Shown here: in pieces, positions 9,063 to 26,149 of the stretch
Position numbering within the stretch: position 1 is the first letter of the stretch
How the letters are laid out: each line of letters opens with the position of its first letter
Position numbers and translations under genes: made by a program
Source: an uncultured Methanosarcinaceae archaeon
Lineage (GTDB): Archaea > Halobacteriota > Methanosarcinia > Methanosarcinales > Methanosarcinaceae
Direction: 5' to 3'
Length of the DNA: 64,000 bases
Assembly (NCBI GenBank): GCA_963847185.1
Contig: CAWJYV010000008.1
Coordinates: 320,001 to 384,000, forward strand
The notes under the pieces: generated by a model
Database searches by the model: none
The model's input: the letters and a program-made list of their open reading frames with translations, nothing else
What the model was told of the DNA's origin: nothing

Positions 9063-10082
9063 TTGCACGGCAGTGGGGGGAGTGATTCATTCATGACGGC
9101 GAATGTCATAGAAGTAAATAATCTTGAGCACAGTTATGGCGATTTAAAAGCTGTAGATAATATCAGTTTCACCGTAAAGGAAGGGGAAATATTTTCATTT
9201 CTAGGTCCGAATGGAGCGGGTAAGAGTACTGTAATAAATATTCTCACTACACTTCGGAAAATCCAGAAAGGTGAGGCTAAAGTTAATGGTTATGATGTGG
9301 CAAAGGAATCAAAGCATGTAAGAAAATCAATAGGTATTGTTTTTCAGATGATGTGCCTTGATTATGAAATGACTGTATGTGAAAATCTTGAGTATCATGG
9401 AAAGATATACTCAATGCCAAAAGAAGAAAGAAGAAAAAGAATAAACGAACTTCTTAAATTAACTGAACTGGAAAGTAAAAGGAATACTCTTGCTAAAGAC
9501 TTAAGTGGGGGCATGAAACGAAGGCTTGAACTTGCAAGAGGATTAATGACAAAACCTGCAGTTCTTTTTCTTGATGAGCCGACGATAGGTTTTGATATCC
9601 AGACCAGATTAAGAATGTGGGAATATTTGAGGGAGATTAAGAGAGAAGGCACAACCATATTCATGACCACTCATTATATGGAGGAAGCCGATCAGCTCAG
9701 TGACAGGATCAGTATTATTGATCATGGGAAAATCATTGTAACCGGGAGTGCATTGGAGTTAAAAAATCAGCTTGGAAAAGACCTTCTTTATCTGGAAACT
9801 AGTGATAATAAAGCTGCTGCAGAAGTTTTGAAGACTATCGAATCGGTAACTGGAGTAACTGATGACTCTAAATCCCTAAGGATAATGCTTGGGATAGATG
9901 TCACACATGTACTACCGAAAATTATAGACAGTATCAGGCAAAAAGGGATAGAGATCATAACAGTAAATATCAAAAAACCTTCTATGGATGATGTTTTCGT
10001 TCATTATACAGGGCATGATTTAAGAGAAGGCGGAACACAGGAAAAGCATGAAGGAGACGAAATTATGGAGGCATTGAAATGA
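9063..10082 (+). CDS. ABC-2 type exporter ATP-binding subunit (DrrA-like)
   Basis: GPNGAGKS, LSGGMKRR, FLDEPT, TTHYMEEA; likely start at MTANV. Confidence 0.95.
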   Translation: MHGSGGSDSFMTANVIEVNNLEHSYGDLKAVDNISFTVKEGEIFSFLGPNGAGKSTVINILTTLRKIQKGEAKVNGYDVAKESKHVRKSIGIVFQMMCLDYEMTVCENLEYHGKIYSMPKEERRKRINELLKLTELESKRNTLAKDLSGGMKRRLELARGLMTKPAVLFLDEPTIGFDIQTRLRMWEYLREIKREGTTIFMTTHYMEEADQLSDRISIIDHGKIIVTGSALELKNQLGKDLLYLETSDNKAAAEVLKTIESVTGVTDDSKSLRIMLGIDVTHVLPKIIDSIRQKGIEIITVNIKKPSMDDVFVHYTGHDLREGGTQEKHEGDEIMEALK

Positions 10083-10915
10083 GCTTTGCGTTCCAAGCGA
10101 TATACTGGAGAGAAATGGTAAAGTTTTTTAGATTCAAATCCGTGCTCCTCAGTTCATTGATTCAGCCTGTGATGTGGCTGGCATTTTTTGGGCTTGCAAT
10201 GTCAGATAGTTTTGATAAATTAACTTCCATGATACCAAGCATTCCCGGTGTTCCAAACGTGGATTATCTTTCCTATATGGGTGCTGGAATAATTGCAATG
10301 GACGTGCTCTTTGCCAGCCTTTTTGGGGGTACTAATCTCTTATTTGATAAGAAATATAGTCTATTAAAAGAGACTATTGCAAGTCCTATCTCACGAGTTA
10401 ATATCATCCTAGGGGTTGGGCTTTCCGCTGTGACGAAATCTTTCATCCAGACGGCTATCATTATCGGATTTGGAGGACTGATTGGTATGAATTTCTTTAA
10501 GGGATACACTCCTGTTCAAACCCTTATATCAGTCGTGGGTATATTTGTACTGGTTGGAATTTTTACATTGGGATTCCTCTTCCTTTCAGGATCAATTGCT
10601 ATTACGGTTGATCAACCCGAAGGAATGCAGTCCATACTTACCTTTATTAGTATGCCATTATTTTTTGTGAGCAATGCACTTTATCCTGTCGATGGATTTC
10701 CTGAATTTATCAGGATCCTGTCGGTGTTTAATCCATTATCTCTCCTGGCAAACGGAGTTCGCTATTTCGCGTTAGGAACTAACTTCTCTGTAATGGGTAC
10801 CCATTACATTTATACGACAGCGGATATTGCCTTTTCATTTGTAGGACTAATAGTCTTTGCTCTCACAATGTTATCCGCCGTACTCTGGAGATTAAATAAA
10901 GTGAATATTTCTTAA
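10079..10915 (+). CDS. ABC-2 type exporter permease (DrrB-like)
   Basis: About six TM segments, NPLS motif, overlaps ATPase stop. Confidence 0.92.
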   Translation: MSFAFQAIYWREMVKFFRFKSVLLSSLIQPVMWLAFFGLAMSDSFDKLTSMIPSIPGVPNVDYLSYMGAGIIAMDVLFASLFGGTNLLFDKKYSLLKETIASPISRVNIILGVGLSAVTKSFIQTAIIIGFGGLIGMNFFKGYTPVQTLISVVGIFVLVGIFTLGFLFLSGSIAITVDQPEGMQSILTFISMPLFFVSNALYPVDGFPEFIRILSVFNPLSLLANGVRYFALGTNFSVMGTHYIYTTADIAFSFVGLIVFALTMLSAVLWRLNKVNIS

Positions 10916-11203
10916 TTTTCACTTTATTTTCTTCGGTCGTGGACATGAGTTATTGAAAACTGTAAGCATAAGAATCTCTCCATATTTCTCTCAAATACGG
11001 AAGACATACTCGCTTTTCGGAATTGATCAATAACCCGCGTACACAACCTTTTTTCTTAACTCCTGCTTTTATATGTCTTATTTCTGAAGATTACCTGCTT
11101 TACAGGTAGCTTTTTATTTAATATTTTATTTCTCTTTAGGTTCGATTTGTTTTCAGTTTGCTCATTACTAGTGATGATATTTTGATATTTAATTTTTAAA
11201 TAA

Positions 11204-11265
11204 ATTTATTCAGTCGGTTGCCCCGCTAGCTTGCTGTGGGATGCGCCAGCGCAACTTTGATTTTT
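11204..11265. repeat. Short GC-rich palindromic element resembling Methanosarcina IS-end/interspersed repeats
   Basis: ccccgctagcttgctgtggga-tgcgccagcgca hairpin-like island in AT-rich DNA; family assignment from memory only. Confidence 0.35.
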
Positions 11266-13229
11266 CAGAATATATTCTTCTAAGTGTTTCTAGAAGGTGG
11301 ATTTGCTGCATGGCTTAATAAAAACGAACTTTTTAAAAACTTTGGCTGCAATTGTATATTTTGAAAAAGTAACTTTTATTACTTTTCTGCATGCTGACTG
11401 AAAAAGACAATGCCAGTGTCATTGAACTTAAAGCCTCAACTCCTAAAGTCTATCATAAATATAAAGAAGCACATATCTCAGGAGCGATCTTTTGGAAATG
11501 CATCTCCACTTTGTAGTGATTAAAATAACAGGACTACCCTGTTTTAAATGGATATAGGCCGCTTCTGAGGTCATCTGCGCTGAATCTGAAGGCAATTCTG
11601 AAGGATAGTTTGAAGAATAGACCTTTTGCCTGAGACAAGCTCAATTGTACTGTTTATGCTATGAATCTAATTATTACAAGCTTTAAAGACACTCCATTGT
11701 GATCAGTTGATACTTTAAGGGACCTATATCCTTGCGCAGACCTAATGTCTGTTTATTTAAGTAATCCCATCTCTTTCGCATGTCTTTTTCTCCCTTTTCT
11801 GAGATCCATTATTATCTTGTCTCAAAGTCAAATTTCTTAAAAGAATATTATCACAGAACTTTGCCATATCTGGAATGCAAACTGGTTTTGACTATGAAAG
11901 GTGTTTATATGTAACTTTTATTAACCTAGCTGTAAGCACCTTTTTTAGATATGATATAAGTCAAGGTCATCTCTCATTATACGGTTGATGTTTTCATGGT
12001 TAATTTTCCGATGTAGAAATGCTTATATTTTGTGCATTAAAGCACGTCTACTATAACACACTGAATCATCTTACCAAACTGCAAAAAAGATATGATGCGA
12101 CACTAGGAGTGTTTTGGGATATAACATCAACCAACTAATAGTGCACGATCAAAGTCAATTATAACTCGAAATAAAGTGCAAAGCGCTTATATCCAGACTT
12201 ATTCTACTTCGCCATTAAAATAGTAATTTAAGGACTGAAATTACTTATGAAAATTATTACCTTCTATATTTTTACTGACACTCTACGTCAATTTTCTAAC
12301 ATATAATTTTCTTAATATATAACCTTATATATTCTCAAAAGCATCTGATTTCAGTGTTCTCTCTTTCTCGTTTTTAATATCTAATTATATCTAATAAAGT
12401 AAAGTTTATTCCTAAAGTACATAATATTATAGGGTTTACTAATGGCTCTCGGTGCGTTTTTATGGTGACGAAATATGGAGCCAAAAGTACAAGACTTTTA
12501 GATTTCGATTTTAAAGTTTCAAGCGTAAACATGATTAAGAAAAATAAATTTAAATAAAGATAAGAATTAATTGGAATGTTAAATTTGAAGGAAAAAAACT
12601 CTTCTCCATGATAGTTGGATTGCACATGATGGAGAAATCCCAGGATCTGCATTTGTTGGATGATTCGAGGTCTGATATTTCGTAAAAAAAAAGATACTTG
12701 CAAAATAAATATATGATCTTCTTTATCTATAATTCTAGGACTATTTTCTGCTTTTTTTAGTAAAATCATTCATTTTAGTACCTATAAATTAATTAAGCTG
12801 ATAGATTGAGTTTATTTTTTCCTTTTATCATTTAATTTTTCCTATTTTGCCAAAAAAAAGGTTAAAGACTTTCTTTTATATACAATTTAAAATAATTTCT
12901 GAAATATTTCTTTATTTTGGAAGTGCTTCCTCTTTTTCCCGATAAATAGTTCCTGATTTTCGGAACTATTTAGTGATAAGTAAAAATTATTCTATATGCT
13001 TTATATAAATTAAAGATATATGTTTATATATACTCATCTGCAAGGAAATATTTAGATATGTTAATCCAAAAAAGTAATACCTCATTGTAATATATTTTTG
13101 GATCTGAATTGTAGTGAGTATCGCATATTTGTGGGAATATAATACATTGGTATAGAAAACATATGTATATGTTTTCTCAAAGGTTGCGAAAAAGGAATAA
13201 TCAGAGATAAAACTTTAGGGAGGGATATA

Positions 13230-13322
13230 ATGTTTGCATATGATTTCTTTGTGAACTTTGCTTTGATTTCAGCATACAAAGCAACAGTCTGTGCACAGAT
13301 TACCCAAGTAATTGTCGGGTAA
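13230..13322 (+). CDS. Micropeptide family A1, 30 aa MFAYDFFVNFALISAYKATVCAQITQVIVG
   Basis: SD gggaggg upstream; paralog of the three following ORFs. Confidence 0.8.
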   Translation: MFAYDFFVNFALISAYKATVCAQITQVIVG

Positions 13323-13404
13323 ATTAGATGGATAATAAGGAATTCACTCTCGAAGGATTTCCATTGTATTGTAGTGAGAACTATATTGAAAGGGGGAAAA
13401 TCAA

Positions 13405-13497
13405 ATGTTTGCATACGATTTTTTTGTTAATGTGGCTCTGATTAAAGCATACAAAGCAAAAGTTTGTGCAGAGATTACCCAAGTAATTATCGGGTAA
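13405..13497 (+). CDS. Micropeptide family A2, 30 aa MFAYDFFVNVALIKAYKAKVCAEITQVIIG
   Basis: SD aggggg; synonymous and conservative changes versus A1. Confidence 0.8.
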   Translation: MFAYDFFVNVALIKAYKAKVCAEITQVIIG

Positions 13498-13577
13498 ATT
13501 GAGACAAATAATAAGGATTCATTCTAGAAGATTTTACCATATTAAAATAGAGAATATACTGAAAGGAGGAAAATTAA

Positions 13578-13679
13578 ATGTATTGGTTTTCACAGGACTT
13601 TTTTGTTAATCTGGCCCTAGTTGACGCATACAAAGCAAAAGTTTACGCAGGAATTACACAGGTAATCGTCGAATTATAA
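13578..13679 (+). CDS. Micropeptide family A3, 33 aa MYWFSQDFFVNLALVDAYKAKVYAGITQVIVEL
   Basis: SD aggagg; in-frame length variation relative to A1/A2/A4. Confidence 0.8.
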   Translation: MYWFSQDFFVNLALVDAYKAKVYAGITQVIVEL

Positions 13680-13714
13680 GATTCACGTAAATAAACTTAA
13701 AGGAGGAAAATCAA

Positions 13715-13807
13715 ATGTTTGCATATGATTTCTTTGTCAATATAGCCCTGGTTAAAGCATGCAAGGCACAAGTTTACGCAGGAATTACCCAGGTAATCAT
13801 CGGATAA
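13715..13807 (+). CDS. Micropeptide family A4, 30 aa MFAYDFFVNIALVKACKAQVYAGITQVIIG
   Basis: SD aggagg; followed by hairpin at 13836-13858. Confidence 0.8.
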   Translation: MFAYDFFVNIALVKACKAQVYAGITQVIIG

Positions 13808-13835
13808 ATTAAAAAATACAAAAAATTGAATTGAG

Positions 13836-13858
13836 AGTTGCCTGTTTTACATGCAACT
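13836..13858 (+). terminator. Hairpin agttgcctgttttacatgcaact followed by T-run
   Basis: Imperfect inverted repeat; related copies at 14090, 14329 and 16061. Confidence 0.5.
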
Positions 13859-13984
13859 TTTTGGGTCTATAAAACAGTTTCAGTGGTTGCCTCTTAAAGA
13901 TATAATGGACAATCTCCTGGATTCGTTTGTCTTTAATTGGCGACCAATTAATCTATAGAGTTATAAATAAATGGGGGAAAAGTA

Positions 13985-14077
13985 ATGATAGTTTTACCAT
14001 CAATAAATATAAACATGGCGTGGGTATTCGTAATTCTTTCCAAGAATATCGGCGTTTTCATAAATCAGAATATCTAA
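13985..14077 (+). CDS. Micropeptide family B1, 30 aa MIVLPSININMAWVFVILSKNIGVFINQNI
   Basis: SD ggggg; differs from B2 mostly at third codon positions. Confidence 0.75.
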   Translation: MIVLPSININMAWVFVILSKNIGVFINQNI

Positions 14078-14089
14078 TTTAAATTAAAA

Positions 14090-14112
14090 AGTTGCATGTT
14101 TTGCATGCAATT
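14090..14112 (+). terminator. Hairpin gttgcatgttttgcatgcaa after B1
   Basis: Inverted repeat just downstream of stop codon. Confidence 0.5.
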
Positions 14113-14227
14113 CTTAGGCCGTAGTAATCTAATAGATATTCTAGATATGGACAAATCTCTGGATTCATTTGTCTTTAACTGATGACCAATTAATCCATAC
14201 GTTTAGAAAGAAATGGAGGGAGAAATA

Positions 14228-14320
14228 ATGATAGTCTTACCATCAATAAATATAAACATGGCATGGGTATTCGTAATTCTTTCAAGGAATATCGGCGTTT
14301 TCATAAATCAAAGCATCTAA
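14228..14320 (+). CDS. Micropeptide family B2, 30 aa MIVLPSININMAWVFVILSRNIGVFINQSI
   Basis: SD ggaggg; GTT/GTC, GCG/GCA, TCC/TCA, CAG/CAA synonymous changes versus B1. Confidence 0.75.
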   Translation: MIVLPSININMAWVFVILSRNIGVFINQSI

Positions 14321-14328
14321 ATTTAATG

Positions 14329-14355
14329 AAAGTTGCATGTTTTGCATGCAACTTT
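14329..14355 (+). terminator. Hairpin aaagttgcatgttttgcatgcaacttt after B2
   Basis: 11 bp inverted repeat plus T-run. Confidence 0.55.
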
Positions 14356-15066
14356 TTAGGTCGTAGTAATCTCAATAGCCATATCTTCTAGTATAATGGA
14401 CAAATTCCCTGGATTCATTTATCTAGAGTTGATGGCTATAGATTCTCTATTTACTTTCATGGCTTAGTTTTTTATCTTTCTCTGCGTTCACTAGACTTTT
14501 ATTCAATTAGATACAATTTTAAGGCTGTTATTTTGTCCTCTGGCGTGTTTCAAGATTGTATCAATATAATATTGTACTCGTTAAATATAATGTCTAATGA
14601 AATACAAATAAGAAACTGACATTAAAATGCAGTTAGTTAATTCGTTTTTTTCTTTGCCTATTTGCTGGTCGAAATTTCTCTATTTAATCCTACTATTTAT
14701 ATATACATATTTGCAAAATTAATCATGTCATAGCAGATAACCAAAACGTAAAGTAATGAAAAAATATAATTTTACACTTGAATAGTCTTCTACTTAAAGG
14801 TGAATATCTAAATTGAAATAAATTCAAAAATAGAAATTCAGTATGAGTCAGAAAAGTACTTCTCAAAGTATCCAAAGTTAGTATTAATAGCTTAATTTCA
14901 AATCTTTTAATTATTGTGTGTTTAATTTTTATATTCGAAATATCTATTAATCGAGTTATTTGGATACCTGAGTAGTTGTCAAAAGTTACTTGTGTATATT
15001 TAGGCGTTTTGGCATTTTAATCCAATTTTGGTGATATAATTAACTTCTCAACAATTTATTCTATTC

Positions 15067-15174
15067 TTATAAATGTCTGAAATTCCTCAGAGAGTTTCCT
15101 CCGATTTGTATGAATTTTATGCGTATAATCTGGATCATAATATTAATCTTTGTGTAACTGAAGTAAAGGAACAT
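15067..15174 (-). CDS. Divergent family C-like micropeptide, 35 aa MFLYFSYTKINIMIQIIRIKFIQIGGNSLRNFRHL
   Basis: SD ggggag 8 nt upstream; ungapped alignment to family C (F5, Y7, K/R-F/Y-I-Q at 20-23). Confidence 0.55.
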   Translation of the reverse strand: MFLYFSYTKINIMIQIIRIKFIQIGGNSLRNFRHL

Positions 15175-16060
15175 ATAATCTTCTCCCCTTGTTTAATATA
15201 TCTCTTTTCATTTGTTTTAGTGCTTTCTTCTAATTGATAAATTGGATTTAAGATCCCCACATTATTTTTCTTTTTTTCACAATCGCTATTGCATCTCTAT
15301 TAGATCTTTTTAGTGATGTGTTAATCTTTTTAATCAACTCCTTATTAGATTACTACTCTTCGACATGTTTCTTGAAACTATGGTAAGTTCAAACTGCTAA
15401 ATTTATTTTGAATCAAATCATGGGCATCTTTTTCATTTGAGTCTGATAATTCTAATTGTCTAATCGAAGAGTTTCTATATACAGTTATATCATTAATTTA
15501 TATGTACTGTAGAGAACAATTACTCCTTACAATTTATAGTGTTTAAATATTTGAATACAGAATTCCTGCAGAGAAAAAAATTTTAAAATTTATTTTTTAA
15601 AAAATTAATAAATACATAGAATTTATATGTCTTTTTTGTTCTGCAATAATGTTAATTATGCGAAAATATTCGGGATGAAAAGTAAAGAATTAATGAAGAG
15701 AATCTTTATCTATAATCTAAAGTTAAATAAGAATATAAATTCGAAATATATAGGTGCAAGGGATAGCTCCCTCTATATTTTATGGAGTTATAAAAATTAC
15801 TTTAATTTATATTTCTCTAAGTAAAATTAATATTTTATAGGCTAACCAAGATATGTTCACTCTTTTCGAAGATATTTTAGTCTCGTCTTTTTATATAGTT
15901 CGCATCCCTGTCTAAATGTTGATAGTTTGTATATTCTTGAGGTTTATTTCATAGCCCAAAATCAGTGTGTTGAGAAGCAAACTTTTTAGTTTTTAAAATA
16001 AGTAATTCATTTAATATGTTTTTATTTATATATCTACATATTAATATATGTAGAAATTTA

Positions 16061-16085
16061 AAGTCGCCTGTTTTGCGGGCGACTT
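16061..16085 (-). terminator. Hairpin aagtcgcctgttttgcgggcgactt at the end of the minus-strand micropeptide array
   Basis: Variant of the 13836/14090/14329 hairpin with compensatory stem changes. Confidence 0.55.
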
Positions 16086-16182
16086 CTTAATTTCTATTGT
16101 TGCGCATTGTCTATGATTATGAGTTATGCCACAAGCTTATGACTTATTTTATTCTCTCATAAATCTCTCTCATCTTGAGGCT

Positions 16183-16260
16183 TTAATCGCACTGAATGTA
16201 TCTGAACCATGTCTTATCAAAGGTCTTACTTACACAAAGATATTCAAACAGGATGGACAT
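16183..16260 (-). CDS. Micropeptide family C, 25 aa MSILFEYLCVSKTFDKTWFRYIQCD
   Basis: SD ggagg; last of ten paralogs in transcription order. Confidence 0.82.
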   Translation of the reverse strand: MSILFEYLCVSKTFDKTWFRYIQCD

Positions 16261-16341
16261 TGAAACTTCCTCCATTATCTTTTTATCTGTTAGTCAGTTT
16301 TATTCATTAAGTTTCAATTAAATTTTAACCAGCTAATTTGG

Positions 16342-16419
16342 TTAAAATTCGAAGCAGAACTCTATACCAAGGCCTGCAACAGCTTTAAATAAGTTGGAAA
16401 GGTTAAATACAAATATCAT
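16342..16419 (-). CDS. Micropeptide family D, 25 aa MIFVFNLSNLFKAVAGLGIEFCFEF
   Basis: SD ggagtgggg; stop codon lies within an 11 bp hairpin arm. Confidence 0.78.
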   Translation of the reverse strand: MIFVFNLSNLFKAVAGLGIEFCFEF

Positions 16420-16464
16420 TTTATCCCCACTCCTTTTGGTTTTCTGGCGCTGAATTTGTGTATC

Positions 16465-16539
16465 TTAACACTGAATGTATCTGAACCACTCAAGGTTGTA
16501 AGTCTTACTAACACAGAGATATTCAAACAGGATGGACAT
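16465..16539 (-). CDS. Micropeptide family C, 24 aa MSILFEYLCVSKTYNLEWFRYIQC
   Basis: SD gaggga; paralog. Confidence 0.82.
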   Translation of the reverse strand: MSILFEYLCVSKTYNLEWFRYIQC

Positions 16540-16596
16540 TGGAACTCCCTCTACTCTTTATTTTACTTGCGAATTTAACAACTCAGTTTTTATATC

Positions 16597-16671
16597 TTAA
16601 CACTGAATGTATCTGAACCACTCGAGGTTGTAGGTCTTGCTAATGCACAGGTATTCAAACAGTATGGACAT
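16597..16671 (-). CDS. Micropeptide family C, 24 aa MSILFEYLCISKTYNLEWFRYIQC
   Basis: SD ggggga; many synonymous changes versus the neighbour. Confidence 0.82.
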   Translation of the reverse strand: MSILFEYLCISKTYNLEWFRYIQC

Positions 16672-16755
16672 TTAAATCTCCCCCATTCTTTTTATGTGTA
16701 TTTTAGTCAGTTTTTATTAATTAAGTTTCAATTAAATTTTAACCAGCTAATTTGG

Positions 16756-16833
16756 TTAAAATTCGAAGCAGAACTCTATACCAAGGCCTGCAACAGCTTT
16801 AAATAAGTTGGAAAGGTTAAATACAAATATCAT
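16756..16833 (-). CDS. Micropeptide family D, 25 aa MIFVFNLSNLFKAVAGLGIEFCFEF
   Basis: SD ggagtgga; 414 bp from previous D copy. Confidence 0.78.
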   Translation of the reverse strand: MIFVFNLSNLFKAVAGLGIEFCFEF

Positions 16834-16877
16834 TTTATCTCCACTCCCTTTTGGTTTTCTGTCATTTAATTTGTGTT

Positions 16878-16952
16878 TTAACACTGAATGTATCTGAACC
16901 ATGTCATGTTAAAGGTCTTACTAACACAGAGATATTCGAACAGTATGGACAT
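16878..16952 (-). CDS. Micropeptide family C, 24 aa MSILFEYLCVSKTFNMTWFRYIQC
   Basis: SD aaggga; paralog. Confidence 0.82.
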   Translation of the reverse strand: MSILFEYLCVSKTFNMTWFRYIQC

Positions 16953-17010
16953 TTCGATTCCCTTTACTCTTTATGTCGCTTGTGAACTCAACTGATTTAA
17001 TCTCGATCTC

Positions 17011-17085
17011 TTAACACTGAATGTATCTGAACCACTCGAGGTTGTAGGTCTTGCTAATGCACAGGTATTCAAACAGTATGGACAT
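17011..17085 (-). CDS. Micropeptide family C, 24 aa MSILFEYLCISKTYNLEWFRYIQC
   Basis: SD aggaga; 414 bp from the 16671 copy. Confidence 0.82.
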   Translation of the reverse strand: MSILFEYLCISKTYNLEWFRYIQC

Positions 17086-17169
17086 TTAAATCTCTCCTAC
17101 TCTTTTTATGTTTATTTCAGTAAGTTTTTATTCATTAAGTCTCAATTAAATTTTAACCAACTAATTTGG

Positions 17170-17247
17170 TTAAAATTCGAAGCAGAACTCTATACCAAGG
17201 CCTGCAACAGCTTTAAAGAAGTTGTTAAGGTTAAATACAAATATCAT
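17170..17247 (-). CDS. Micropeptide family D, 25 aa MIFVFNLNNFFKAVAGLGIEFCFEF
   Basis: SD ggagtgga; two substitutions versus the other D copies. Confidence 0.78.
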   Translation of the reverse strand: MIFVFNLNNFFKAVAGLGIEFCFEF

Positions 17248-17293
17248 TTTATCTCCACTCCCCTTTGGTTTTTTGTCATTTAATTTGAGTATC

Positions 17294-17368
17294 TTAACAC
17301 TGAATGTATCTGAACCATGTCATGTCAAAGGTCTTGCTAACACAGAGATATTCAAATAGTATGGACAT
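17294..17368 (-). CDS. Micropeptide family C, 24 aa MSILFEYLCVSKTFDMTWFRYIQC
   Basis: SD ggaggg; paralog. Confidence 0.82.
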   Translation of the reverse strand: MSILFEYLCVSKTFDMTWFRYIQC

Positions 17369-17412
17369 TTCAATTCCCTCCTCTCTTTATGTCGCTTACG
17401 AGTTCAACTAAG

Positions 17413-17537
17413 AGCCTATCCGAAAAATGTTGTGAGCTACTGTAACTTTTGAAAGTGACAATATACACAACTTCACTAGCACTCGATAATATGACTCGTA
17501 ACTTCTCGAGATGCATTAATGACTTTTCGGATAGGCT
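17413..17537. mobile_element. 125 bp MITE inserted between two family C genes
   Basis: Perfect 14 bp TIR agcctatccgaaaa / ttttcggataggct; absent from homologous spacers of the array. Confidence 0.75.
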
Positions 17538-17555
17538 TCATTCATTTCCCGCAGT

Positions 17556-17633
17556 TTAGCAGCACTGAATGTATCTGAACCATGTCATGTTAAAGGTCTT
17601 GCTAACACAGAGATATTCGAACAGTATGGACAT
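17556..17633 (-). CDS. Micropeptide family C, 25 aa MSILFEYLCVSKTFNMTWFRYIQCC
   Basis: SD ggaggg; extra in-frame TGC codon. Confidence 0.82.
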   Translation of the reverse strand: MSILFEYLCVSKTFNMTWFRYIQCC

Positions 17634-17691
17634 TTCAATTCCCTCCACTCTTTATTTTACTTGCTAATTCAACTAACTCAATTTTTAGATC

Positions 17692-17766
17692 TTAGCACTG
17701 AATGTATCTGAACCATGTCATGTTAAAGGTCTTGCTAACACAGAGATATTCGAACAGTATGGACAT
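17692..17766 (-). CDS. Micropeptide family C, 24 aa MSILFEYLCVSKTFNMTWFRYIQC
   Basis: SD ggaggg; part of identical 133 bp tandem units. Confidence 0.82.
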   Translation of the reverse strand: MSILFEYLCVSKTFNMTWFRYIQC

Positions 17767-17824
17767 TTCAATTCCCTCCACTCTTTATTTTACTTGCTAA
17801 TTCAACTAACTCAATTTTTAGATC

Positions 17825-17899
17825 TTAGCACTGAATGTATCTGAACCATGTCATGTTAAAGGTCTTGCTAACACAGAGATATTCGAACAGTATGGACAT
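17825..17899 (-). CDS. Micropeptide family C, 24 aa MSILFEYLCVSKTFNMTWFRYIQC
   Basis: SD ggaggg; part of identical 133 bp tandem units. Confidence 0.82.
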   Translation of the reverse strand: MSILFEYLCVSKTFNMTWFRYIQC

Positions 17900-17957
17900 T
17901 TCAATTCCCTCCACTCTTTATTTTACTTGCTAATTCAACTAACTCAATTTTTAGATC

Positions 17958-18035
17958 TTAGCAGCACTGAATGTATCTGAACCATGTCATGTTAAAGGTC
18001 TTGCTAACACAGAGATATTCGAACAGTATGGACAT
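17958..18035 (-). CDS. Micropeptide family C, 25 aa MSILFEYLCVSKTFNMTWFRYIQCC
   Basis: SD ggaggg; first C copy in transcription order. Confidence 0.82.
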   Translation of the reverse strand: MSILFEYLCVSKTFNMTWFRYIQCC

Positions 18036-18118
18036 TTCAATTCCCTCCACTCTTTTACTTTCTCTTTGCTTAATTTTGCCGTCAATTTAGACTGGATTCT
18101 AATCTAAACCATTTTTAG

Positions 18119-18190
18119 TTATTTGAAGTAGATTTGTACACCAAGGCCTGCAAATGCATTAAAGAAGTTTTTAATATTAACGAATAGCAT
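18119..18190 (-). CDS. Divergent family D micropeptide, 23 aa MLFVNIKNFFNAFAGLGVQIYFK
   Basis: SD gggaggg; shares NFF.A.AGLG core with family D; first gene of the minus-strand array. Confidence 0.75.
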   Translation of the reverse strand: MLFVNIKNFFNAFAGLGVQIYFK

Positions 18191-19970
18191 TTTCTCCCTC
18201 CCCATTTTGCATTTTTCCATGCTTATACATTCTCTTTTTCTATCCTTTTTGTATATTTTCAATAGAAAATACACTTATCAGGAATATTTGTACGAGGCTT
18301 TTTCTTAATCCCCTCGGTCGTTAATACCACTCTGGCAAATATCTTTTTATTATTAGGCGTTAATCTTTCGTTTTGGCCTCAAAAAGCCTAACTTTTGCTC
18401 GCCAGTGAGTGTATCTAACTATCTATACTAAATTATATAAGCCCTATAGAACTAATAATTCTTATAAATAATAGTCTTTGAACTTTTTAGAATATTTATC
18501 TAAGATAAATAATATATATTTATATAAAATTTTCATTTATTTCTACTATTCATAATTTGAATACGTCGTTGACTTCCATTATACAAGGATAAAGATAAAT
18601 TATCCTATTAATTAATCAATATTAAAGTTTAATATTAAATATCATACTTAGATTCTATTTTTTCTTTTATTATCTTTTTTTGTCCATATCAAATACTTTT
18701 TACAGGATATTTACTTATCTCGAGTTACTTCTTTGTCCAACAGATTTCTAAATTTTTTGCCAATATTTTGCGAATTTTGGTTTTTTCTTTACTATTTTCT
18801 TTCCAATTAAATATCTTAGAGTGATAATTTTAGATAGTGAATATATCGCTAAAATATCAGTTTACTTTCTATGGGTAGGTTATGAATAAATCCCTGTTTT
18901 GTTCTACCAAACTATTTTGATAAAATATATTGCCTTATGTCATGAAAAGTGTCTCTTATTTTTGATTCTCGGTACTCAGTAGTATTTTTATCCAAGTTAC
19001 TTTTCTTCTCTTTAATCTCTTTATCTTTTATTTTTGCTGTTGAAAAACCATATGTTTTTTGTCAGGAATACTTTCATAGGTGCCCTTTCTTCAGATGGAT
19101 TTTAAAAAAGAATCTTGCAGGGAGTTCAGTAACTCAAAAACTTTGACTTAAAAACAGTAAAAAAGGGAACTCTTCTCCTCTTTCTAAACACTTGGGTAAA
19201 AGCATAATACTTATTTTACAGATCGAAAGTAGTTGCCATTACAGATCTCTAATTTATTTTCTTTTTTCTTACAAAAAGGAATTTATTTGGTGGGGAATTT
19301 CTCCAAAAAGGCAGTGTAGCGAAAGTTCTGTAAAATCACAAATCTCAAGAAGTTCCTTGGACGAAAATACCGTTTCAGAAGAATCTAATTTCATATTGTG
19401 AGAAAAAATTGACTTCATATTTACAGCAAATTTGCGACACTGCTTTTGATATTTCAGGTCATATAATAGTGTGTTCTTAAATTTATTCATCCTATAAAAT
19501 ATAAGTCAATATATATCATTTTCCTAACACGAATGTGTCTACATTACTAACCAGCAAAAAAGAAAAAAATATAATCAGTAATCGAAAATTAATGAAAATT
19601 AATTCATAGACGTTTATTCATTAGATATTAAGAAAGATAACAGTTTAAGTTGGTTCTCTCATTTGATGAATTGTTACTAATATAATTCTTAAAAATTAAG
19701 CTTTATTTCGTTCTATTAATCTTTTTTAGCGTTATCATGATCCTTTTTTTTATATAATGTAATTTTTATGTGTTTTTTGATTAAATGAGCTTCAATTATG
19801 CATTTATCGAGTAAATAAACATCTAAATTCTTTAGTTTATACTCATATTTCGGATAACTCTTTAAAAAAATTTAGAGAGAATAGGTTAAAATGGATTTTC
19901 TTACAATAAGAAGAAGTAAAGAGAATTGAGATTATCCTTATAATTTTTTTCTCATTATATCTCAGTTACT

Positions 19971-20690
19971 TTGGGGGGGAATATGGATATAATCAACGAC
20001 AGTTTACCTGAGGGTGGATTTCCTATTGTCGAACTTTCCAACGTCAGGAAGAGTTATTTACTTGGAAATCTGGAAGTTCCGGTTCTCTCGGATATTAACC
20101 TTAAAATAGGTGTGGGAGAGTTTCTCGCTATTATGGGTCCATCGGGCTCAGGGAAAAGTACACTTATGAACCTTATAGGTTGCCTTGACCGACCTACTGA
20201 AGGTCAGGTGCTTATAAGAGGAAGCGATCTCCAGAGAATGTCAGACAAAGAACTTGCCCGCTTAAGGGGGCTTGAAATAGGTTTTGTTTTTCAGAATTTT
20301 AATCTGGTTCCGCGCCTGACGGCTCTTGAGAACGTCTTGCTCCCTACTTTTGCAAATTCGAGAATTAGTACTGATCCAGTAAAGCGTGCAAAAGAGCTCC
20401 TTGAAACTATGGGGCTGCAGGATCGTATGCACCATAGGCCAGGGGAACTTTCAGGAGGCCAGGCTCAAAGAGTCTCAATAGCAAGGGCGCTTATTAATGA
20501 CCCTGCTATTCTTCTTGCGGATGAACCGACCGGAAATCTTGACTCCAGGACCGGAGCTGAGATTCTTAGAATACTTATGAATCTGAATACCGAAGGAAGA
20601 ACGATAATAATAGTTACACACGACTCTGAAATTGCTAAGTATGCTGATCGAGTCGTTCTGGTGAAGGATGGAATAATCCAGTTTAATTAA
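19971..20690 (+). CDS. ABC transporter ATP-binding protein (LolD/MacB/SalX type)
   Basis: GPSGSGKS, LSGGQAQR, LLADEPTGNLD, VTHD; likely start ATG 19983. Confidence 0.95.
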   Translation: MGGNMDIINDSLPEGGFPIVELSNVRKSYLLGNLEVPVLSDINLKIGVGEFLAIMGPSGSGKSTLMNLIGCLDRPTEGQVLIRGSDLQRMSDKELARLRGLEIGFVFQNFNLVPRLTALENVLLPTFANSRISTDPVKRAKELLETMGLQDRMHHRPGELSGGQAQRVSIARALINDPAILLADEPTGNLDSRTGAEILRILMNLNTEGRTIIIVTHDSEIAKYADRVVLVKDGIIQFN

Positions 20691-20702
20691 AGGTGGGATC
20701 AT

Positions 20703-21950
20703 ATGGAAATAGTTAAAAAGAATGTTGTTGCTTTTTTTTCTTTACTTTTGGTTTTCTCTTCACTTGCAATTCCTGCTTCTGCAGATGTTGGAAGTGCAAG
20801 CCTTAAAATTACAATAATCGAAACAAATCCCTATCCTGCAAAGATAGGGGAATACTTAAACCTTACATTACAGGTGGAAAATGTTGGGCAGGATAAAGCT
20901 GGTAATGTTGACATAGAAGTTATTCCTAAGTATCCTTTCTCTCTTGATCCTGGGATGAATCCCATTCAAAACGTTGGGGCACTCAACCCAGGCAGGACTG
21001 CAACGAAAGAATTCTATCTTTTTGTGGACAAAAACGCTCAGAAAGGAATCCGCTCCCTTGACATCCGGGCAAGAGCCGATAAAGGCAGTCCATGGAGCGA
21101 GAAAAGCTTTGATATAAGGGTCGGTACTCAAACATATAATAGTAAAGGTACAGTTGAACTTGAGAATGTTGTTTCGAACCCAGATATTTTCATGCCTGGA
21201 GATCGGGGCACTGTTACAGTAACTCTCAAGAATACCGCAACCACTCCGACTGTCACCATTGATGAGAGTAGTTATGATACCAATGCCAGAATTCAGTCAG
21301 CCGTTTTAGAGCCATTATCTGATGAGATAATCGTACTTGATTCTCCATATGAAGAAATGGGTATTATAGGGCCTGGAGATAGTATCAAATTAACTTTCAA
21401 CGTTAGGGTTGCAGAGAATGCCATGGATGGGAATCACAACCTTGAATTAGCAATAGAGGGCAATTCTTTCGATTACAATAGCAAAAAGAATATTCCTCTT
21501 AAGGTCGACTCTTCAAATATAAAGGTGATCCCTTCAAAAGCACTTCAGCTTGTCAATGGACAATCTACAATCGAATTTGATGTGGCAAATACCCATCCTA
21601 ACGAGCTTAACTCAGTAAGCATAAAACCTGAAGCTGAGGGTGTGAAATTTTATCCTGCAGAATATTTCATAGGGCCAATGGATCCGGATGAGCTTTTTAC
21701 TGTCGAATTTGATGCTGTAAAAGATAATTCTTCGGGTTTCACGGAAGATTCAGGTAAAATAAACATGAGCCTTACTGCAAATTATAACAATGGAATTAAC
21801 AGGCACGCAAATGTCATCGGGAATCTTAATCTTGCAGACGATTCCGAATCCTCCGAATCAAATTCAACATCCGTAATAGCAGGTGGACTTGTTATTATTT
21901 CTGTTCCTGCGGCCTTTCTGTATTACAGAAGAAAAAAAGCAGCGAGATAA
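20703..21950 (+). CDS. COG1361-like cell-surface protein (signal peptide, Ig-like domains, C-terminal TM anchor)
   Basis: N-terminal signal peptide, C-terminal hydrophobic helix plus RRKK; lies inside the ABC operon. Confidence 0.85.
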   Translation: MEIVKKNVVAFFSLLLVFSSLAIPASADVGSASLKITIIETNPYPAKIGEYLNLTLQVENVGQDKAGNVDIEVIPKYPFSLDPGMNPIQNVGALNPGRTATKEFYLFVDKNAQKGIRSLDIRARADKGSPWSEKSFDIRVGTQTYNSKGTVELENVVSNPDIFMPGDRGTVTVTLKNTATTPTVTIDESSYDTNARIQSAVLEPLSDEIIVLDSPYEEMGIIGPGDSIKLTFNVRVAENAMDGNHNLELAIEGNSFDYNSKKNIPLKVDSSNIKVIPSKALQLVNGQSTIEFDVANTHPNELNSVSIKPEAEGVKFYPAEYFIGPMDPDELFTVEFDAVKDNSSGFTEDSGKINMSLTANYNNGINRHANVIGNLNLADDSESSESNSTSVIAGGLVIISVPAAFLYYRRKKAAR

Positions 21951-21981
21951 ATTAACTGATATCATATTTGTGGGGTAAAAT

Positions 21982-23193
21982 ATGATCAGATTTGCGCAGG
22001 CAACTCGAATTGCTTTGGGGAGTATAGGAAGTGCTAAGCTTAGGTCATCACTTACTACACTTGGAATAGTGATTGGCATAGCTGCAGTAGTTGTTAATGC
22101 ATCTCTTGGTGCCAGTTTCAATCAGTTTTTTACTAATGAAATTTCTTCTGTTGGCTCAAACTTTATTATCACGTACAGCAATCAACCCAATATTTTCTTC
22201 GACAACGAGTACAATTTAATGAAAAGTACCCAGGGGATTACCGGTGTGTCTCCCAGAAAATCGATGACTGGAGAGCTAACCTATCTTTCGGAAACTAATA
22301 CCGTAAACATTGCAGGGGTTAATGAGGATTTTCAGGAAATTCAGGGCTTAAAGATGGAAAGAGGCAGTTTCCTGACAAATAAGGATATTAACTCTGCAGT
22401 TTTAGGGTACAACCTGGCAAATGATGAGTTTAGCAGGGATATATCTCACAGAAGCACCGTGGAAATTGCTTTTCGACAAGAAAACGGTACCGTTGTAACG
22501 AAGACATTTAAGGTAAAAGGGATTCTGCAAAATTCCAAGCCAACTGTTATTAGTGAAGATAGCGATTATGATTTGACCGTCTTTATCCCAATTTCTACTA
22601 TGAATGAAATGATAGGAGAAGAGGATTATGGAACTTTTCTTGCAATGACGGATAGTCCTGATAAAGTCCGTAATGTCGCAGAAAAAGTGGATGATAGATT
22701 AGCACGGAATTTTGGGATCTCAGAAAGGGTTGATGATGAAGATTCAAAACCTTATACTGTTTTTAATCAGGCAGATGTGCTTGAGGAAACTGGGAAATTG
22801 GGCGATTCATTAAGCTCTTTCCTTCTGGTCCTTGCCTCAATTTCACTTTTTGTTGGCTCCATAGGGATTATGAACATTATGCTTGTAACAGTTACGGAAC
22901 GTACAAGAGAAATTGGTATAATGAAATCTGTGGGATACAGCAACTCTAATATCCTCTCTCTTTTCCTGCTGGAGTCTATAATGGTCAGTTTCCTTGGAGG
23001 AGTTGTAGGTACAACTATTGGGGGTTTAGGGGCCTATATCCTTGAAAGTGCTCTTAAACTTCCTCCAGTATTTCCTTTTAAATTGATTGAAATAGGGGTG
23101 ATAGTTTCGATTCTTGTGGGGGTAACTGCTGGTTTGTATCCTGCAAAAAAGGCAGCTCATATGAATCCTGTAGATGCTTTAAGGTACGAGTGA
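21982..23193 (+). CDS. MacB/FtsX-like ABC permease
   Basis: LRSxLTxLGIxIG, GIMNIMLVTVTERTREIG, PVDALRYE motifs. Confidence 0.95.
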   Translation: MIRFAQATRIALGSIGSAKLRSSLTTLGIVIGIAAVVVNASLGASFNQFFTNEISSVGSNFIITYSNQPNIFFDNEYNLMKSTQGITGVSPRKSMTGELTYLSETNTVNIAGVNEDFQEIQGLKMERGSFLTNKDINSAVLGYNLANDEFSRDISHRSTVEIAFRQENGTVVTKTFKVKGILQNSKPTVISEDSDYDLTVFIPISTMNEMIGEEDYGTFLAMTDSPDKVRNVAEKVDDRLARNFGISERVDDEDSKPYTVFNQADVLEETGKLGDSLSSFLLVLASISLFVGSIGIMNIMLVTVTERTREIGIMKSVGYSNSNILSLFLLESIMVSFLGGVVGTTIGGLGAYILESALKLPPVFPFKLIEIGVIVSILVGVTAGLYPAKKAAHMNPVDALRYE

Positions 23194-23660
23194 ATCTATT
23201 ATTTCAATAGATTTATTCTGCTGAAGGGTACACCCCTTATTTTTATTCTTTCTTTTTAGTCTATCTGGCTAAATTGGTATCAGTAAAATAACTTTAAGTA
23301 ATTTCTCAGTTATTGATTTTCATATTATTCTTATGTCTATAGATGAATATTTATTTATGTCTATAGATGAATATTTATGATAGTTTGACAGAAAGTTAAT
23401 ATTTACATTTTTCAGCATGTTGAAAAATATCACTGACGATCTGATTGACAATTTGGCCACTTTTACTATTCCTCTGACTTTAGCCGAAAAGGGTTTTTAT
23501 GGAGCTTGTTAAAGAGACTGAAGTTAGAAGAAATCAAAACCTTGGAAGTATGGTGATCAGAACGCAACAAAGGAGGATTCAAAGACGGGAACTAAAAAAC
23601 ATAAGAATCAGACGTTCCATAATGTACGGATAATTCAGATACAGATAACTTAGTTCTAAT

Positions 23661-24572
23661 ATGAAAAACAATAGAGGGGTAGACATGGAAATTAAAATGG
23701 CCACTGACAAAGCATCTGCTCCCGGCAATTCTGCTCCCAAAACAGAAACCGATTCGATACCTGAGGGGAAAATGGCTCATAATGAAAGCCAATTTGTCTC
23801 AAACGAAGATTCAAGTGATGAGCCCTTTAAATATGAATTATACCGCACAAAAAATCTGCATAGAAGGATGGAGGGAAGGGATAAAACAAGAGCTTCGGTT
23901 ATTGAAGTTATCAATGTCAAAAAAAGTTATTTCCTTGGAGATACGGAAGTTCCGATTCTTCGAGATATTAACTTAGAAGTGTTTGAAGGGGAATTTCTTG
24001 CTATCATGGGTCCTTCTGGCTCTGGAAAGAGTACATTAATGAATCTCATTGGTTTTCTTGACAGGCCTACAGAAGGTAAAATTATGATTAAAGGCCTCGA
24101 TGTCAATAAGCTGTCTGATAAGGAAGTTGCTAGACTCAGGGGATTGGAAATAGGTTTCGTGTTCCAGATTTTCAACCTAATCCCACGGCTTACCGCTCTT
24201 GAAAATGTTGAGTTGCCTACTTATGCAAATGTGAGAAATGGGGTTGATGTTCGCAAAAGGGCAAAGGAGCTTCTAGAACAGGTTGGCCTGGATGACCGTA
24301 TGCATCATAAGCCAGGTGAGCTTTCAGGTGGACAATCTCAAAGGGTTGCAATCGCCCGAGCTCTAATTAATGATCCTGCAATTCTTCTTGCGGACGAACC
24401 CACAGGAAATCTTGACTCAAAAACAGGATGTGAAATCCTGAACATGTTCACAAAACTCAACGAAGATGGCAGAACCATTGTAATGATTACCCACGATCCA
24501 GAAATTGCAAAATATGCAGACAGAATAGTGCTCGTAAAAGATGGAATCATTCAGAATAATCCCAATAGTTAA
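23661..24572 (+). CDS. ABC transporter ATP-binding protein (LolD/MacB type) with N-terminal extension
   Basis: Close paralog of 19971-20690; start uncertain. Confidence 0.9.
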   Translation: MKNNRGVDMEIKMATDKASAPGNSAPKTETDSIPEGKMAHNESQFVSNEDSSDEPFKYELYRTKNLHRRMEGRDKTRASVIEVINVKKSYFLGDTEVPILRDINLEVFEGEFLAIMGPSGSGKSTLMNLIGFLDRPTEGKIMIKGLDVNKLSDKEVARLRGLEIGFVFQIFNLIPRLTALENVELPTYANVRNGVDVRKRAKELLEQVGLDDRMHHKPGELSGGQSQRVAIARALINDPAILLADEPTGNLDSKTGCEILNMFTKLNEDGRTIVMITHDPEIAKYADRIVLVKDGIIQNNPNS

Positions 24573-24608
24573 GTTTCAAAATTTTAAGCTAATCAGGGTG
24601 AACCCAGA

Positions 24609-25865
24609 ATGACAAAAATGAAAAACCGAATTATTCCTTTTGTGCTGTCTTTGCTTTTAGTTTCCTCCATTTTTGCAGTTCCTACTTCTGCAGCTGTTGG
24701 AAGTTCAAGCCTTAAAGTCACAATAGTCGAAACAAATCCCTATCCTGCAAAGATCGGAGAATACCTGAACCTTACGCTTCAGGTAGAAAATATTGGAGGG
24801 GACAGGGCTGACAATGTTGACATAGAAATCGTTCCTAAATATCCTTTCTCTCTTGACTCAGGGATAGACCCTGTCCAGAACATCGGAGCTCTCAATCCAG
24901 GCAGGACTGCAACAAAAGAATTCTACCTTTTCGTGGACAAAAACACTCAGAAAGGAATCCGCTCCCTTGATATCCGAACAAGAGCTGATAAAAGCAGTCC
25001 ATGGAGCGAAAAAAGCTTTGATATAAGGATTGGTACTGAAACGTTTGACAGCAAAGGTACAGCTGAACTTCAAGAAGTTGTTTCCAATCCCGATGTTTTC
25101 ATGCCCGGAGACCGGGGGACTGTTACAGTAACTCTCAAGAATACCGCAGCTAATCCGACTGTCACCATTGATGGGAGCGACTATGATACCAATGCCAGAA
25201 TTCAATCAGCTGTTTTAAAGCCTCTATCTGATGGGATAACTGTTCTAGATTCCCCTTATGAAGAGATGGGTCTACTGGGGCCTGGAGATAGTATCAAATT
25301 AACTTTCAACGTTAGAGTTGCAGATGATTCCATGGATGGAACTCACAATCTTGAACTTTTAATAGAGGGAAACTCTTTCGATTACAATAGCAAAAAGAAT
25401 ATTCCTCTCAAGGTCGATTCTTCAAATGTAAAGGTGATACCCTCAAAGACACTTCAACTTGTCAATGGGAAATCTACAATCGAATTTGATGTGGCAAATA
25501 CCCATCCTAACGAGCTTAGCTCAGTAAGCATAAAACCTGAAGCAGATGGAGTGAAATTTTATCCTGCAGAATATTTCATAGGGCCAATGGATCCGGATGA
25601 GCTTTTTACAATTGAATTTGATGCTGTGGCAGATAACTCCTCAGATGCAGATTTGGATTCCTCTAAGCCTATAAACCTGACGCTTTCTGCAAGTTACAGT
25701 AATGGAATCAATAAACATGAAAATACTGTAAGCAATATGTATATTCAAGATATTGAGGAAAATCAGGGAGGAAGTTCTGGTATAATTATTGCAGGCCTGC
25801 TAACTGCTGTCTTTGTTGCTGCAGGTATATTGATTTACAAAAAGAGAATTAAAAACAAAAAATAA
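24609..25865 (+). CDS. COG1361-like cell-surface protein
   Basis: Close paralog of 20703-21950. Confidence 0.85.
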   Translation: MTKMKNRIIPFVLSLLLVSSIFAVPTSAAVGSSSLKVTIVETNPYPAKIGEYLNLTLQVENIGGDRADNVDIEIVPKYPFSLDSGIDPVQNIGALNPGRTATKEFYLFVDKNTQKGIRSLDIRTRADKSSPWSEKSFDIRIGTETFDSKGTAELQEVVSNPDVFMPGDRGTVTVTLKNTAANPTVTIDGSDYDTNARIQSAVLKPLSDGITVLDSPYEEMGLLGPGDSIKLTFNVRVADDSMDGTHNLELLIEGNSFDYNSKKNIPLKVDSSNVKVIPSKTLQLVNGKSTIEFDVANTHPNELSSVSIKPEADGVKFYPAEYFIGPMDPDELFTIEFDAVADNSSDADLDSSKPINLTLSASYSNGINKHENTVSNMYIQDIEENQGGSSGIIIAGLLTAVFVAAGILIYKKRIKNKK

Positions 25866-26149
25866 ATAACTCAAAATATATTACTCAATGATTAAATTTG
25901 TTAAGAGCTTAGTGGATATGTATTTCGGGAATGTTTCTCCTGAAGTATCCCGATAATTTCAGATTGTGCCTTCCACTACGCTCATTTTTTACAGGGTTAT
26001 ACAGGTCATCACTATTGTGCTTTTAACATAGATTTCTCAATGAAAGGGCTGTCCTCCCCAGATTTAACTATTACTTTATATAGTTGATTTCTAATGAATG
26101 ACGCTTTAGTTTTTTACTCTTTATTTTCTTTCTGAGGAGGTCTTTCTTT

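Follow-up and report, generated by a model that had tools for sequence, protein, structure and literature searches.

The phenol-soluble modulin (PSM) alpha peptides of staphylococci are very short and are made from several tandem cistrons of one operon. That operon and the leaderless bacteriocins are regarded as the only well-understood tandem arrays of leaderless micro-peptides. The ATP-binding cassette (ABC) exporter of PSMs, PmtCD, doubles as the immunity determinant of the producer (PMC7527219; PMC12623860). Multi-peptide leaderless bacteriocins such as aureocin A70, garvicin KS and the cereucins consist of three or four related peptides of 26-34 amino acids (aa) encoded side by side, which are active unprocessed, often escape annotation, and carry a net charge of +2 to +5 with an isoelectric point (pI) above 10 (PMC6131525). 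As far as the available portion of the source goes, archaeocins have been reported from haloarchaea and Sulfolobus only, and no methanogen is among the producers that it names (PMC4609331). In the methanogen Methanosarcina mazei, unannotated open reading frames (ORFs) of 20-70 aa are translated according to ribosome profiling (Ribo-seq) and mass spectrometry, and some of the products have conserved cysteines (PMC11456600). Here, we describe family C, a set of ten tandemly arranged ORFs for two-cysteine peptides of 24-25 aa in the genome of an uncultured Methanosarcinaceae archaeon (assembly GCA_963847185.1). The window, the whole stretch of DNA analysed, comprises 64,000 nucleotides (nt) of contig CAWJYV010000008.1 (positions 320,001 to 384,000, forward strand), and all coordinates below refer to it.

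Judging from its substitutions and ribosome sites, family C is very probably a translated, protein-coding micro-gene family under selection, with a coding signature about as clear as 72 nt allows. It is so far undescribed, within reach of the database and literature searches made. Gene callers miss peptides this small, and the seemingly empty 9 kb of AT-rich DNA around the family holds at least 14 micro-genes led by ribosome sites, or 20 when the whole island is counted.

Coding signature of family C

Family C consists of ten minus-strand ORFs between 16183 and 18035, with ATGs at 18035, 17899, 17766, 17633, 17368, 17085, 16952, 16671, 16539 and 16260 and a last stop codon that ends at 16183. 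All ten frames are intact, and all ten copies encode the consensus MSILFEYLC[V/I]SKT-xxxx-WFRYIQC, in which 19 of the 24 core positions are invariant and six of the 24 residues are aromatic. Residue 10 is V in eight copies and I in two; the central patch (residues 14-17) reads FNMT in five copies, YNLE in three, and FDMT and FDKT in one each; and the peptide ends in C (seven copies), CC (two) or CD (one). The original prediction, drawn from the DNA letters and their translations, had recognized the ten-copy motif, its patch variants and its three kinds of ending, and all of these are recovered in place. Its statement that variation is confined to one patch is correct for residues 14-17, but position 10 and the C-terminal extension vary as well. 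Within the window, the back-translated pattern T-x4-WFRYIQC has 10 matches against 0.00 expected, two DNA probes allowed up to three mismatches retrieve the same ten copies and no others, and a profile search of 3070 six-frame fragments returns ten matches at E ~1e-21, with the next best at E 0.15. Only six of the ten 72-nt cores are distinct, which qualifies the copy count: copies C1-C4 (18035, 17899, 17766 and 17633, numbered 5′ to 3′ along the minus strand) are identical over 72 nt, and so are C6 and C8 (17085 and 16671).

Differences among the copies follow the minus-strand reading frame. Variable columns number 21 in the 72-nt core: third codon positions account for 14 of them (P 0.0018 for one given position), first positions for four and second positions for three. 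Away from the patch codons 14-17, 10 of the 11 columns that vary do so synonymously, against a chance expectation of 17.8% (P 2.9e-7). Pairwise comparison of the six distinct sequences gives a ratio of nonsynonymous to synonymous differences (pN/pS) of 0.187 overall; with the patch left out it is 0.016, on 67 synonymous against 5 nonsynonymous pairwise differences and with the synonymous term (pS) reaching 0.42. The amino acid sequence outside residues 14-17 is thus under strong purifying selection, as the original prediction had proposed from third-position differences, and a pS of this size means that the paralogues are not all young. The patch itself has a pN/pS of 0.347, below 1, and falls into two deep types only, F-x-x-T and YNLE, which differ at 7 of 12 nt (counted by eye). 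The word diversified describes the patch well, but this ratio lends no support to positive selection, and the patch types may equally be old alleles whose flanks have been homogenised.

The conserved region has the bounds of a gene. Between copies, mean identity is 0.886 over the ORF and 0.580 over the 58-nt upstream spacer, and the ORF is the better conserved of the two in 42 of 45 pairs. A GGAGG-like Shine-Dalgarno (SD) motif lies at -16 to -4 of the ATG in nine of the ten copies, compared with a background of 17 among 605 ATG-started ORFs of 15-60 aa outside the island (2.8%). An in-frame TAA directly before the shared ATG in C6 and C8 fixes this ATG as the start, and the forms of 29-30 aa returned by the ORF finder are accordingly read-throughs of the ribosome site. 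An antisense ORF beginning MYLNHV was considered and set aside, as it is interrupted by stops in two of the six distinct sequences (three of the ten copies) and no ribosome site is seen before it by eye; its pN/pS of 0.231 arises because its third positions coincide with those of the minus frame.

One part of the core does not vary. Its last 20 nt (TGG..GTG; 16190-16209 and nine equivalent sites) are the same in each of the ten copies, even at five degenerate third positions, whereas the 5′ half varies freely; the N-terminal part has 9 variable third positions of 12 and the C-terminal part 1 of 6 (Fisher P 0.043). This block may result from gene conversion or from an added constraint at the nucleic-acid (RNA) level. 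A structured RNA repeat is rejected as an explanation of the family: the consensus fold reaches -6.57 kcal/mol with compensatory changes in 0 of 23 pairs, a 402-nt fold covering three units is less stable than shuffled sequence (z +1.48), and Rfam gives no match over 10900-20000 at E up to 1.

One relative is seen outside the window. A profile of the ten peptides, run against 1.84 billion representative proteins, gives five matches, of which one, P0001, is a true relative (30 aa, E 3.9e-13, MEEITMSILFEYLCISKTFNLTKFRYIQCC); because this library collapses entries of more than 50% identity into one, the result says nothing on the number of members. P0001 is an intact ORF that keeps both cysteines, the CC end, the frame and the SD-derived 'MEE' prefix. 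It matches no window copy exactly, which means that the family has at least one further member, whether in this genome or elsewhere. Its patch, FNLT, is a new type, and at position 18 it carries K in place of the W of all window copies, so that W18 is not essential to the family; the motif that had been called otherwise invariant is so in the ten window copies and not in this relative. A processed non-coding RNA repeat with an ORF broken in relatives, which the original prediction had named as the contrary case, is not what is seen here, given the intact frame of P0001 together with the RNA results above. Three of the other profile matches are repeat proteins with a low-complexity likeness, and the fifth, P0002, is a protein of 1449 aa with 22 matched stretches.

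Searches of other collections were negative. A word-indexed protein search with the 42-aa open stretch containing C1 gave no candidate, which is no proof of absence as P0001 was missed by it too, and the same kind of search with a 48-aa ORF covering one of the companion peptides described below (D2) returned only that ORF itself. Four C-type queries found no family in Pfam or NCBIfam at E up to 10 and no match in PADLOC; two PHROGs families of unknown function, phrog_10929 (E 0.039) and phrog_16243 (E 0.14), were hit by one of the four queries and are taken as chance. The Protein Data Bank (PDB) returned no match for family C, its sole hit being a nanobody at E 2.1, and phage and plasmid collections gave no blastn match. 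Family C peptide strings were not found in a literature text search, topic searches found no tandem micro-peptide array in a methanogen, and the strings of families A, B, C and D, all of this island, do not occur in any of the 10 supplementary files that accompany the Ribo-seq study of M. mazei (PMC11456600).

Array, peptides and genomic surroundings

Family C is interleaved on the same strand with family D, four companion ORFs of 23-25 aa (MIFVFNLSNLFKAVAGLGIEFCFEF and variants), each preceded by a ribosome site. In the 5′ to 3′ direction of the minus strand, the array consists of D0, C1-C4, a 125-bp insert, C5, D1, C6, C7, D2, C8, C9, D3 and C10; it extends from 18190 to 16183, and a strong hairpin lies beyond it. 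Its first ORF, D0 (18119-18190), encodes a divergent companion of 23 aa (MLFVNIKNFFNAFAGLGVQIYFK) that is 46% identical to D3 and matches the family D profile at E 2.8e-18. Four FNMT copies follow: C1 (17958-18035), of 25 aa with a CC end and the SD sequence GGAGGG upstream; C2 (17825-17899) and C3 (17692-17766), both of 24 aa; and C4 (17556-17633), again of 25 aa with a CC end. C2 lies in a 133-nt unit that is the same as those of C3 and C4. Between C4 and C5, the insert (17413-17537) has perfect 14-nt terminal inverted repeats, resembles a miniature inverted-repeat transposable element and is present once in the window.

The remainder of the array is more mixed. C5 (17294-17368; 24 aa, FDMT) is followed by D1 (17170-17247), a companion of 25 aa with the sequence MIFVFNLNNFFKAVAGLGIEFCFEF. 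C6 (17011-17085) and C8 (16597-16671), both of 24 aa, combine the YNLE patch with I10 and are the two copies with a TAA immediately 5′ of the ATG. C7 (16878-16952; 24 aa, FNMT) has the weakest ribosome site, AAGGGA, which the SD pattern misses. D2 (16756-16833) and D3 (16342-16419) are further 25-aa companions, and between C8 and D3 stands C9 (16465-16539; 24 aa), which has the YNLE patch with V10. The last copy, C10 (16183-16260; 25 aa, FDKT, CD end), has an upstream in-frame ATG that overlaps its SD motif and gives a 30-aa form. The array grew by tandem duplication. Repeat analysis resolves 133-nt C units, three of them identical and a fourth copy identical over the ORF alone, together with three 414-nt repeats, a pattern that bears the signature expected of unequal crossing-over. 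The units have also recombined, as C9 joins a C2-type spacer (83% identity) to a YNLE patch.

At the level of the peptide, family C is mildly hydrophobic and nearly neutral. It has a grand average of hydropathy (GRAVY) of 0.13-0.53, with polar residues interrupting every stretch and no continuous hydrophobic span. Its net charge is +1, 0 and 0 for three C types, and that of family D is -1. The hydrophobic moment of family C is 0.25-0.31 at 100 degrees, a value reached by 245 to 428 of 2000 shuffles (12-21%), and 0.09-0.13 at 170 degrees, reached by 1334 to 1679 of 2000; the peptides are therefore not significantly amphipathic, whether as helix or as strand. In families B and D, the largest moment lies at 170-180 degrees, a strand-like periodicity. 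The strand-turn-strand form suggested for family C in the original prediction is not what AlphaFold2 returns, which is a helix-loop-helix modelled with low confidence (pLDDT, the predicted local distance difference test, 66.9), in which the patch occupies the loop and the first part of helix 2, and Cys9 and Cys24 lie at opposite ends. Family D is modelled as a single helix (pLDDT 67.8). Both cysteines are invariant in the ten copies and in P0001; the original prediction suggested that they may be cross-linked or modified. No signal peptide or leader is found in the family C peptides, and no cleavage motif surrounds the patch.

The array lies in an AT-rich island of 9 kb (10916-19970) with a GC content of 0.297, against about 0.40 on both flanks. 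The island contains no family-supported long gene, its two ORFs of at least 100 aa matching nothing, and holds 20 SD-led micro-genes of four families (A, B, C and D). Of the 38 SD-led, ATG-started small ORFs in the window, 21 lie in this island. Family A comprises four tandem SD-led ORFs of 30-33 aa at 13230-13807 on the plus strand (MFAYDFFVN...ITQVI[IV]G; pN/pS 0.24 among three of them). Family B comprises two SD-led 30-aa ORFs at 13985-14320, also on the plus strand (MIVLPSININMAWVFVILS...), in repeats of 242-243 nt, with a pN/pS of 0.10 and a hairpin after each. The hairpin beyond the family C array (16061-16085; 11-bp stem), 98 nt past the C10 stop, belongs to a shared motif, AGTYGCNYGTTTTRCNNGCRACT, with four occurrences at 13836, 14090, 14331 and 16062 (plus strand) where none is expected: one after the A array, one after each B copy and this one. 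Their stems differ by paired changes and the loop is kept; the motif may serve for termination, for processing or for the binding of a protein.

ABC transporter genes border the island on both sides. At 9063-10915 lies an ABC-2 exporter pair, an ATPase with ABC_tran and DrrA1-3_C domains and an ABC2_membrane protein; the membrane subunit has no PDB match. At 19971-29154 lie two paralogous MacB/FtsX-type ABC sets, each of an ATPase, a CARDB-domain protein and a permease, in repeats 71-82% identical, with a MEDS-domain histidine kinase between the second CARDB-domain gene and its permease. The 44 window ORFs scanned and the 8 small ORFs of the island (50-73 aa) include no member of a radical S-adenosylmethionine (SAM), YcaO, lanthipeptide, protease or cyclase family. 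The organism is a Methanosarcina: the window, part of a 1.17-Mb contig, carries an archaeal signal recognition particle RNA, RamA, the methanogenesis-marker cluster and AtwA, and a neighbouring protein has its best named matches in Methanosarcina, at up to 81% identity. Two further tandem small ORFs of ~58 aa (MQSFIVEH...IDKIIALW..) lie in 173-nt repeats, 77% identical, at 43046-43451 on the plus strand, and an IS1-family transposase split into two adjacent ORFs lies at 60859-61889 on the plus strand.

Possible functions of the array

In the explanation that we favour, a promoter upstream of D0 would drive the co-transcription of the 14 cistrons of families C and D into a single polycistronic mRNA or a few of them; by eye, boxes resembling TATA can be read near 18435 and 18250 on the minus strand. 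Each cistron would be translated directly into a peptide of final length and undergo no processing, as a 24-residue product is too short to include a leader, and neither a cleavage motif nor, among the ORFs scanned, a maturase is seen. Tandem amplification of a finished 24-mer suggests a product needed in bulk, and the high copy number would serve that production. Family C, probably together with family D, would then be an aromatic-rich peptide that is membrane-active or exported in the manner of the staphylococcal PSMs or the multi-peptide leaderless bacteriocins, and the flanking ABC-2 and MacB-type systems would be candidate exporters or self-protection pumps. The hydropathy of family C, which overlaps the GRAVY of 0.15-0.7 of leaderless bacteriocins (PMC6131525), argues in favour. 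By analogy with these systems, a membrane-active or exported leaderless peptide set is a doubtful, though real, possibility; the combined account, a translated family under selection that also has a membrane or export function, is the best overall explanation, and a tentative one.

Several observations weigh against this explanation. Family C has a charge of +1 or 0, whereas leaderless bacteriocins have +2 to +7 and a pI above 10 (PMC6131525), and its hydrophobic moment as a helix does not stand out. The ABC genes lie on the opposite strand, at distances of 5.3 kb and 1.8 kb, and are linked to the array by adjacency only; transporters of this type are common in Methanosarcina, and the 60 best PDB matches of the ABC-2 ATPase include no PSM exporter and show no specific likeness to PmtC. 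An immunity gene was not recognised, P0001 is the only relative seen, and the peptide of family C is a prediction from the sequence. The most ambitious form of the proposal is unlikely: families C and D would jointly form a leaderless, ribosomally made multi-peptide weapon or surfactant, the first from a methanogen and thus an 'archaeocin' or an analogue of the PSMs. The array of 14 cistrons would supply it in bulk, the flanking ABC systems would export it, patch variants would tune target or partner specificity, and the A and B arrays would belong to the same peptide-warfare island.

Family C may instead be a small protein that stays in the cell, binding a larger complex or using Cys9 and Cys24 to bridge a metal or Fe-S centre, in the manner of small regulatory proteins of M. 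mazei. Invariant cysteines in every copy and in P0001, and the lack of a signal peptide or leader, would be expected of such a protein; M. mazei translates hundreds of small ORFs, some of only 20 aa and some with functional cysteines (PMC11456600), and small proteins that bind the Mtr complex are known from the literature. Ten copies, four of them identical, would be unusual for a stoichiometric regulator, however, and the two cysteines lie at opposite ends of the low-confidence model; no partner gene is evident and, as noted, the strings are absent from the M. mazei supplementary files, which leaves an intracellular role somewhat unlikely. Family C may also be a precursor that is consumed; precursor genes in many copies would suit a product that the cell uses up. 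Family C would in that case be the substrate of unlinked enzymes that make a peptide synthesized by ribosomes and modified post-translationally (RiPP) or a peptide-derived cofactor, either with the conserved flanks as recognition elements around a four-residue core or with the cysteines modified. The conserved-variable-conserved layout and the invariant cysteines, one at or near the C-terminus, agree with this, and methanogens encode radical-SAM enzymes that install thioethers (PMC13692751). Such a role is nevertheless quite unlikely, given that the scan of window and island ORFs found no maturation enzyme family, that 24 residues are too short for a normal leader and the patch is bounded by no cleavage motif, and that the patch has four variants only, at a pN/pS of 0.347.

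Family C could also consist of type I toxin-like modules multiplied as selfish units; type I toxin genes are often tandemly repeated. Small toxic peptides held down by antisense RNAs could have multiplied in the AT-rich island, and the invariant 20-nt block at the 3′ end of the core could mark an RNA-RNA target, although gene conversion explains it equally; M. mazei has pairs of small-protein RNAs and antisense RNAs, spRNA/asRNA (10.1101/2025.10.28.685009). Small size and hydrophobicity mark the type I toxins (PMC2887945), whereas family C lacks a continuous hydrophobic span; by eye, the plus strand of the spacers shows no conserved element like a promoter, and 14 same-strand cistrons with strong ribosome sites suit a production operon rather than repression, so that toxin-like modules are very unlikely. 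A self-assembling structural peptide, whether a functional amyloid, a surface layer or the fibre subunit proposed in the original prediction, is recommended by the aromatic content (6 of 24 residues), the copy number, the strand-like periodicity of the companion families B and D, and the precedent of PSMs that polymerise into filaments (PMC7527219); it appears decidedly improbable for family C, which lacks strand periodicity (moment of 0.09-0.13 at 170 degrees) and a secretion signal and is modelled as two helices, with low confidence. That the repeats are DNA or RNA elements with an incidental open frame, and are not translated, is the least probable explanation and a very remote one. In its favour, the evidence for expression is indirect, and the family C ORFs apparently went uncalled in their own genome, no stored protein being found, while the 48-aa ORF of the same contig is stored; it must account, however, for 10 synonymous columns of 11 outside the patch (P 2.9e-7), an ORF far better conserved than its spacer, ribosome sites in place, and the absence of RNA structure, covariation or an Rfam match.

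Family C makes a ready test case for archaeal micro-proteins, since its masses can be predicted exactly and its copy number gives promise of an abundant product. Were they membrane-active or exported, as in the favoured explanation, the peptides would open peptide antagonism or surface biology in methanogens; if they are intracellular, a two-cysteine 24-mer amplified ten-fold would be an unusual cofactor or regulator.

Comparison with known systems

RiPP precursors consist of a leader and a core and have a maturase nearby, whereas family C is 24 aa as a whole and no maturase is among the ORFs scanned. Peptides of type I loci such as Ldr/Rdl, Ibs/Sib and Hok/Sok are shorter than 40 aa and are missed by annotation (PMC2887945), and family C likewise is short, lies in a repeated locus and is easily left unannotated. 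It differs from them in having no transmembrane-like span, no antisense element found by eye, and cistrons that look co-transcribed and have strong ribosome sites. Small ORF proteins of M. mazei come from the same genus, are of 20-70 aa, go unannotated and in some cases have conserved cysteines; they are single-copy or at most duplicated, to judge from the available main text, in which the words 'tandem', 'copies' and 'paralog' do not occur (PMC11456600), while family C has ten copies.

As in the multi-peptide leaderless bacteriocins, short leaderless peptides are encoded in tandem, families C and D together forming 14 cistrons of 23-25 aa on one strand, and the hydropathy is similar. The bacteriocins are strongly cationic, whereas family C has a charge of +1 or 0 and no homology to them in Pfam or NCBIfam. 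Antimicrobial activity and a dedicated transporter or immunity gene are further marks of the bacteriocins; here ABC systems flank the island and lie outside the array. PSM alpha and family C are both very short and encoded by tandem cistrons, and the peptides of family C are predicted, like the PSMs, to be made with no leader or processing; an ABC-2-type pair with a DrrA-like C-terminal domain lies at the island edge. There is no sequence similarity between the two, family C is not significantly amphipathic by its hydrophobic moment, the host here is an archaeon, and the array has ten copies plus a second, interleaved family, with a transporter linked by adjacency only. By analogy, family C may be likened to other tandem leaderless micro-peptide arrays, here in an archaeon and with an unusual ten-fold amplification.

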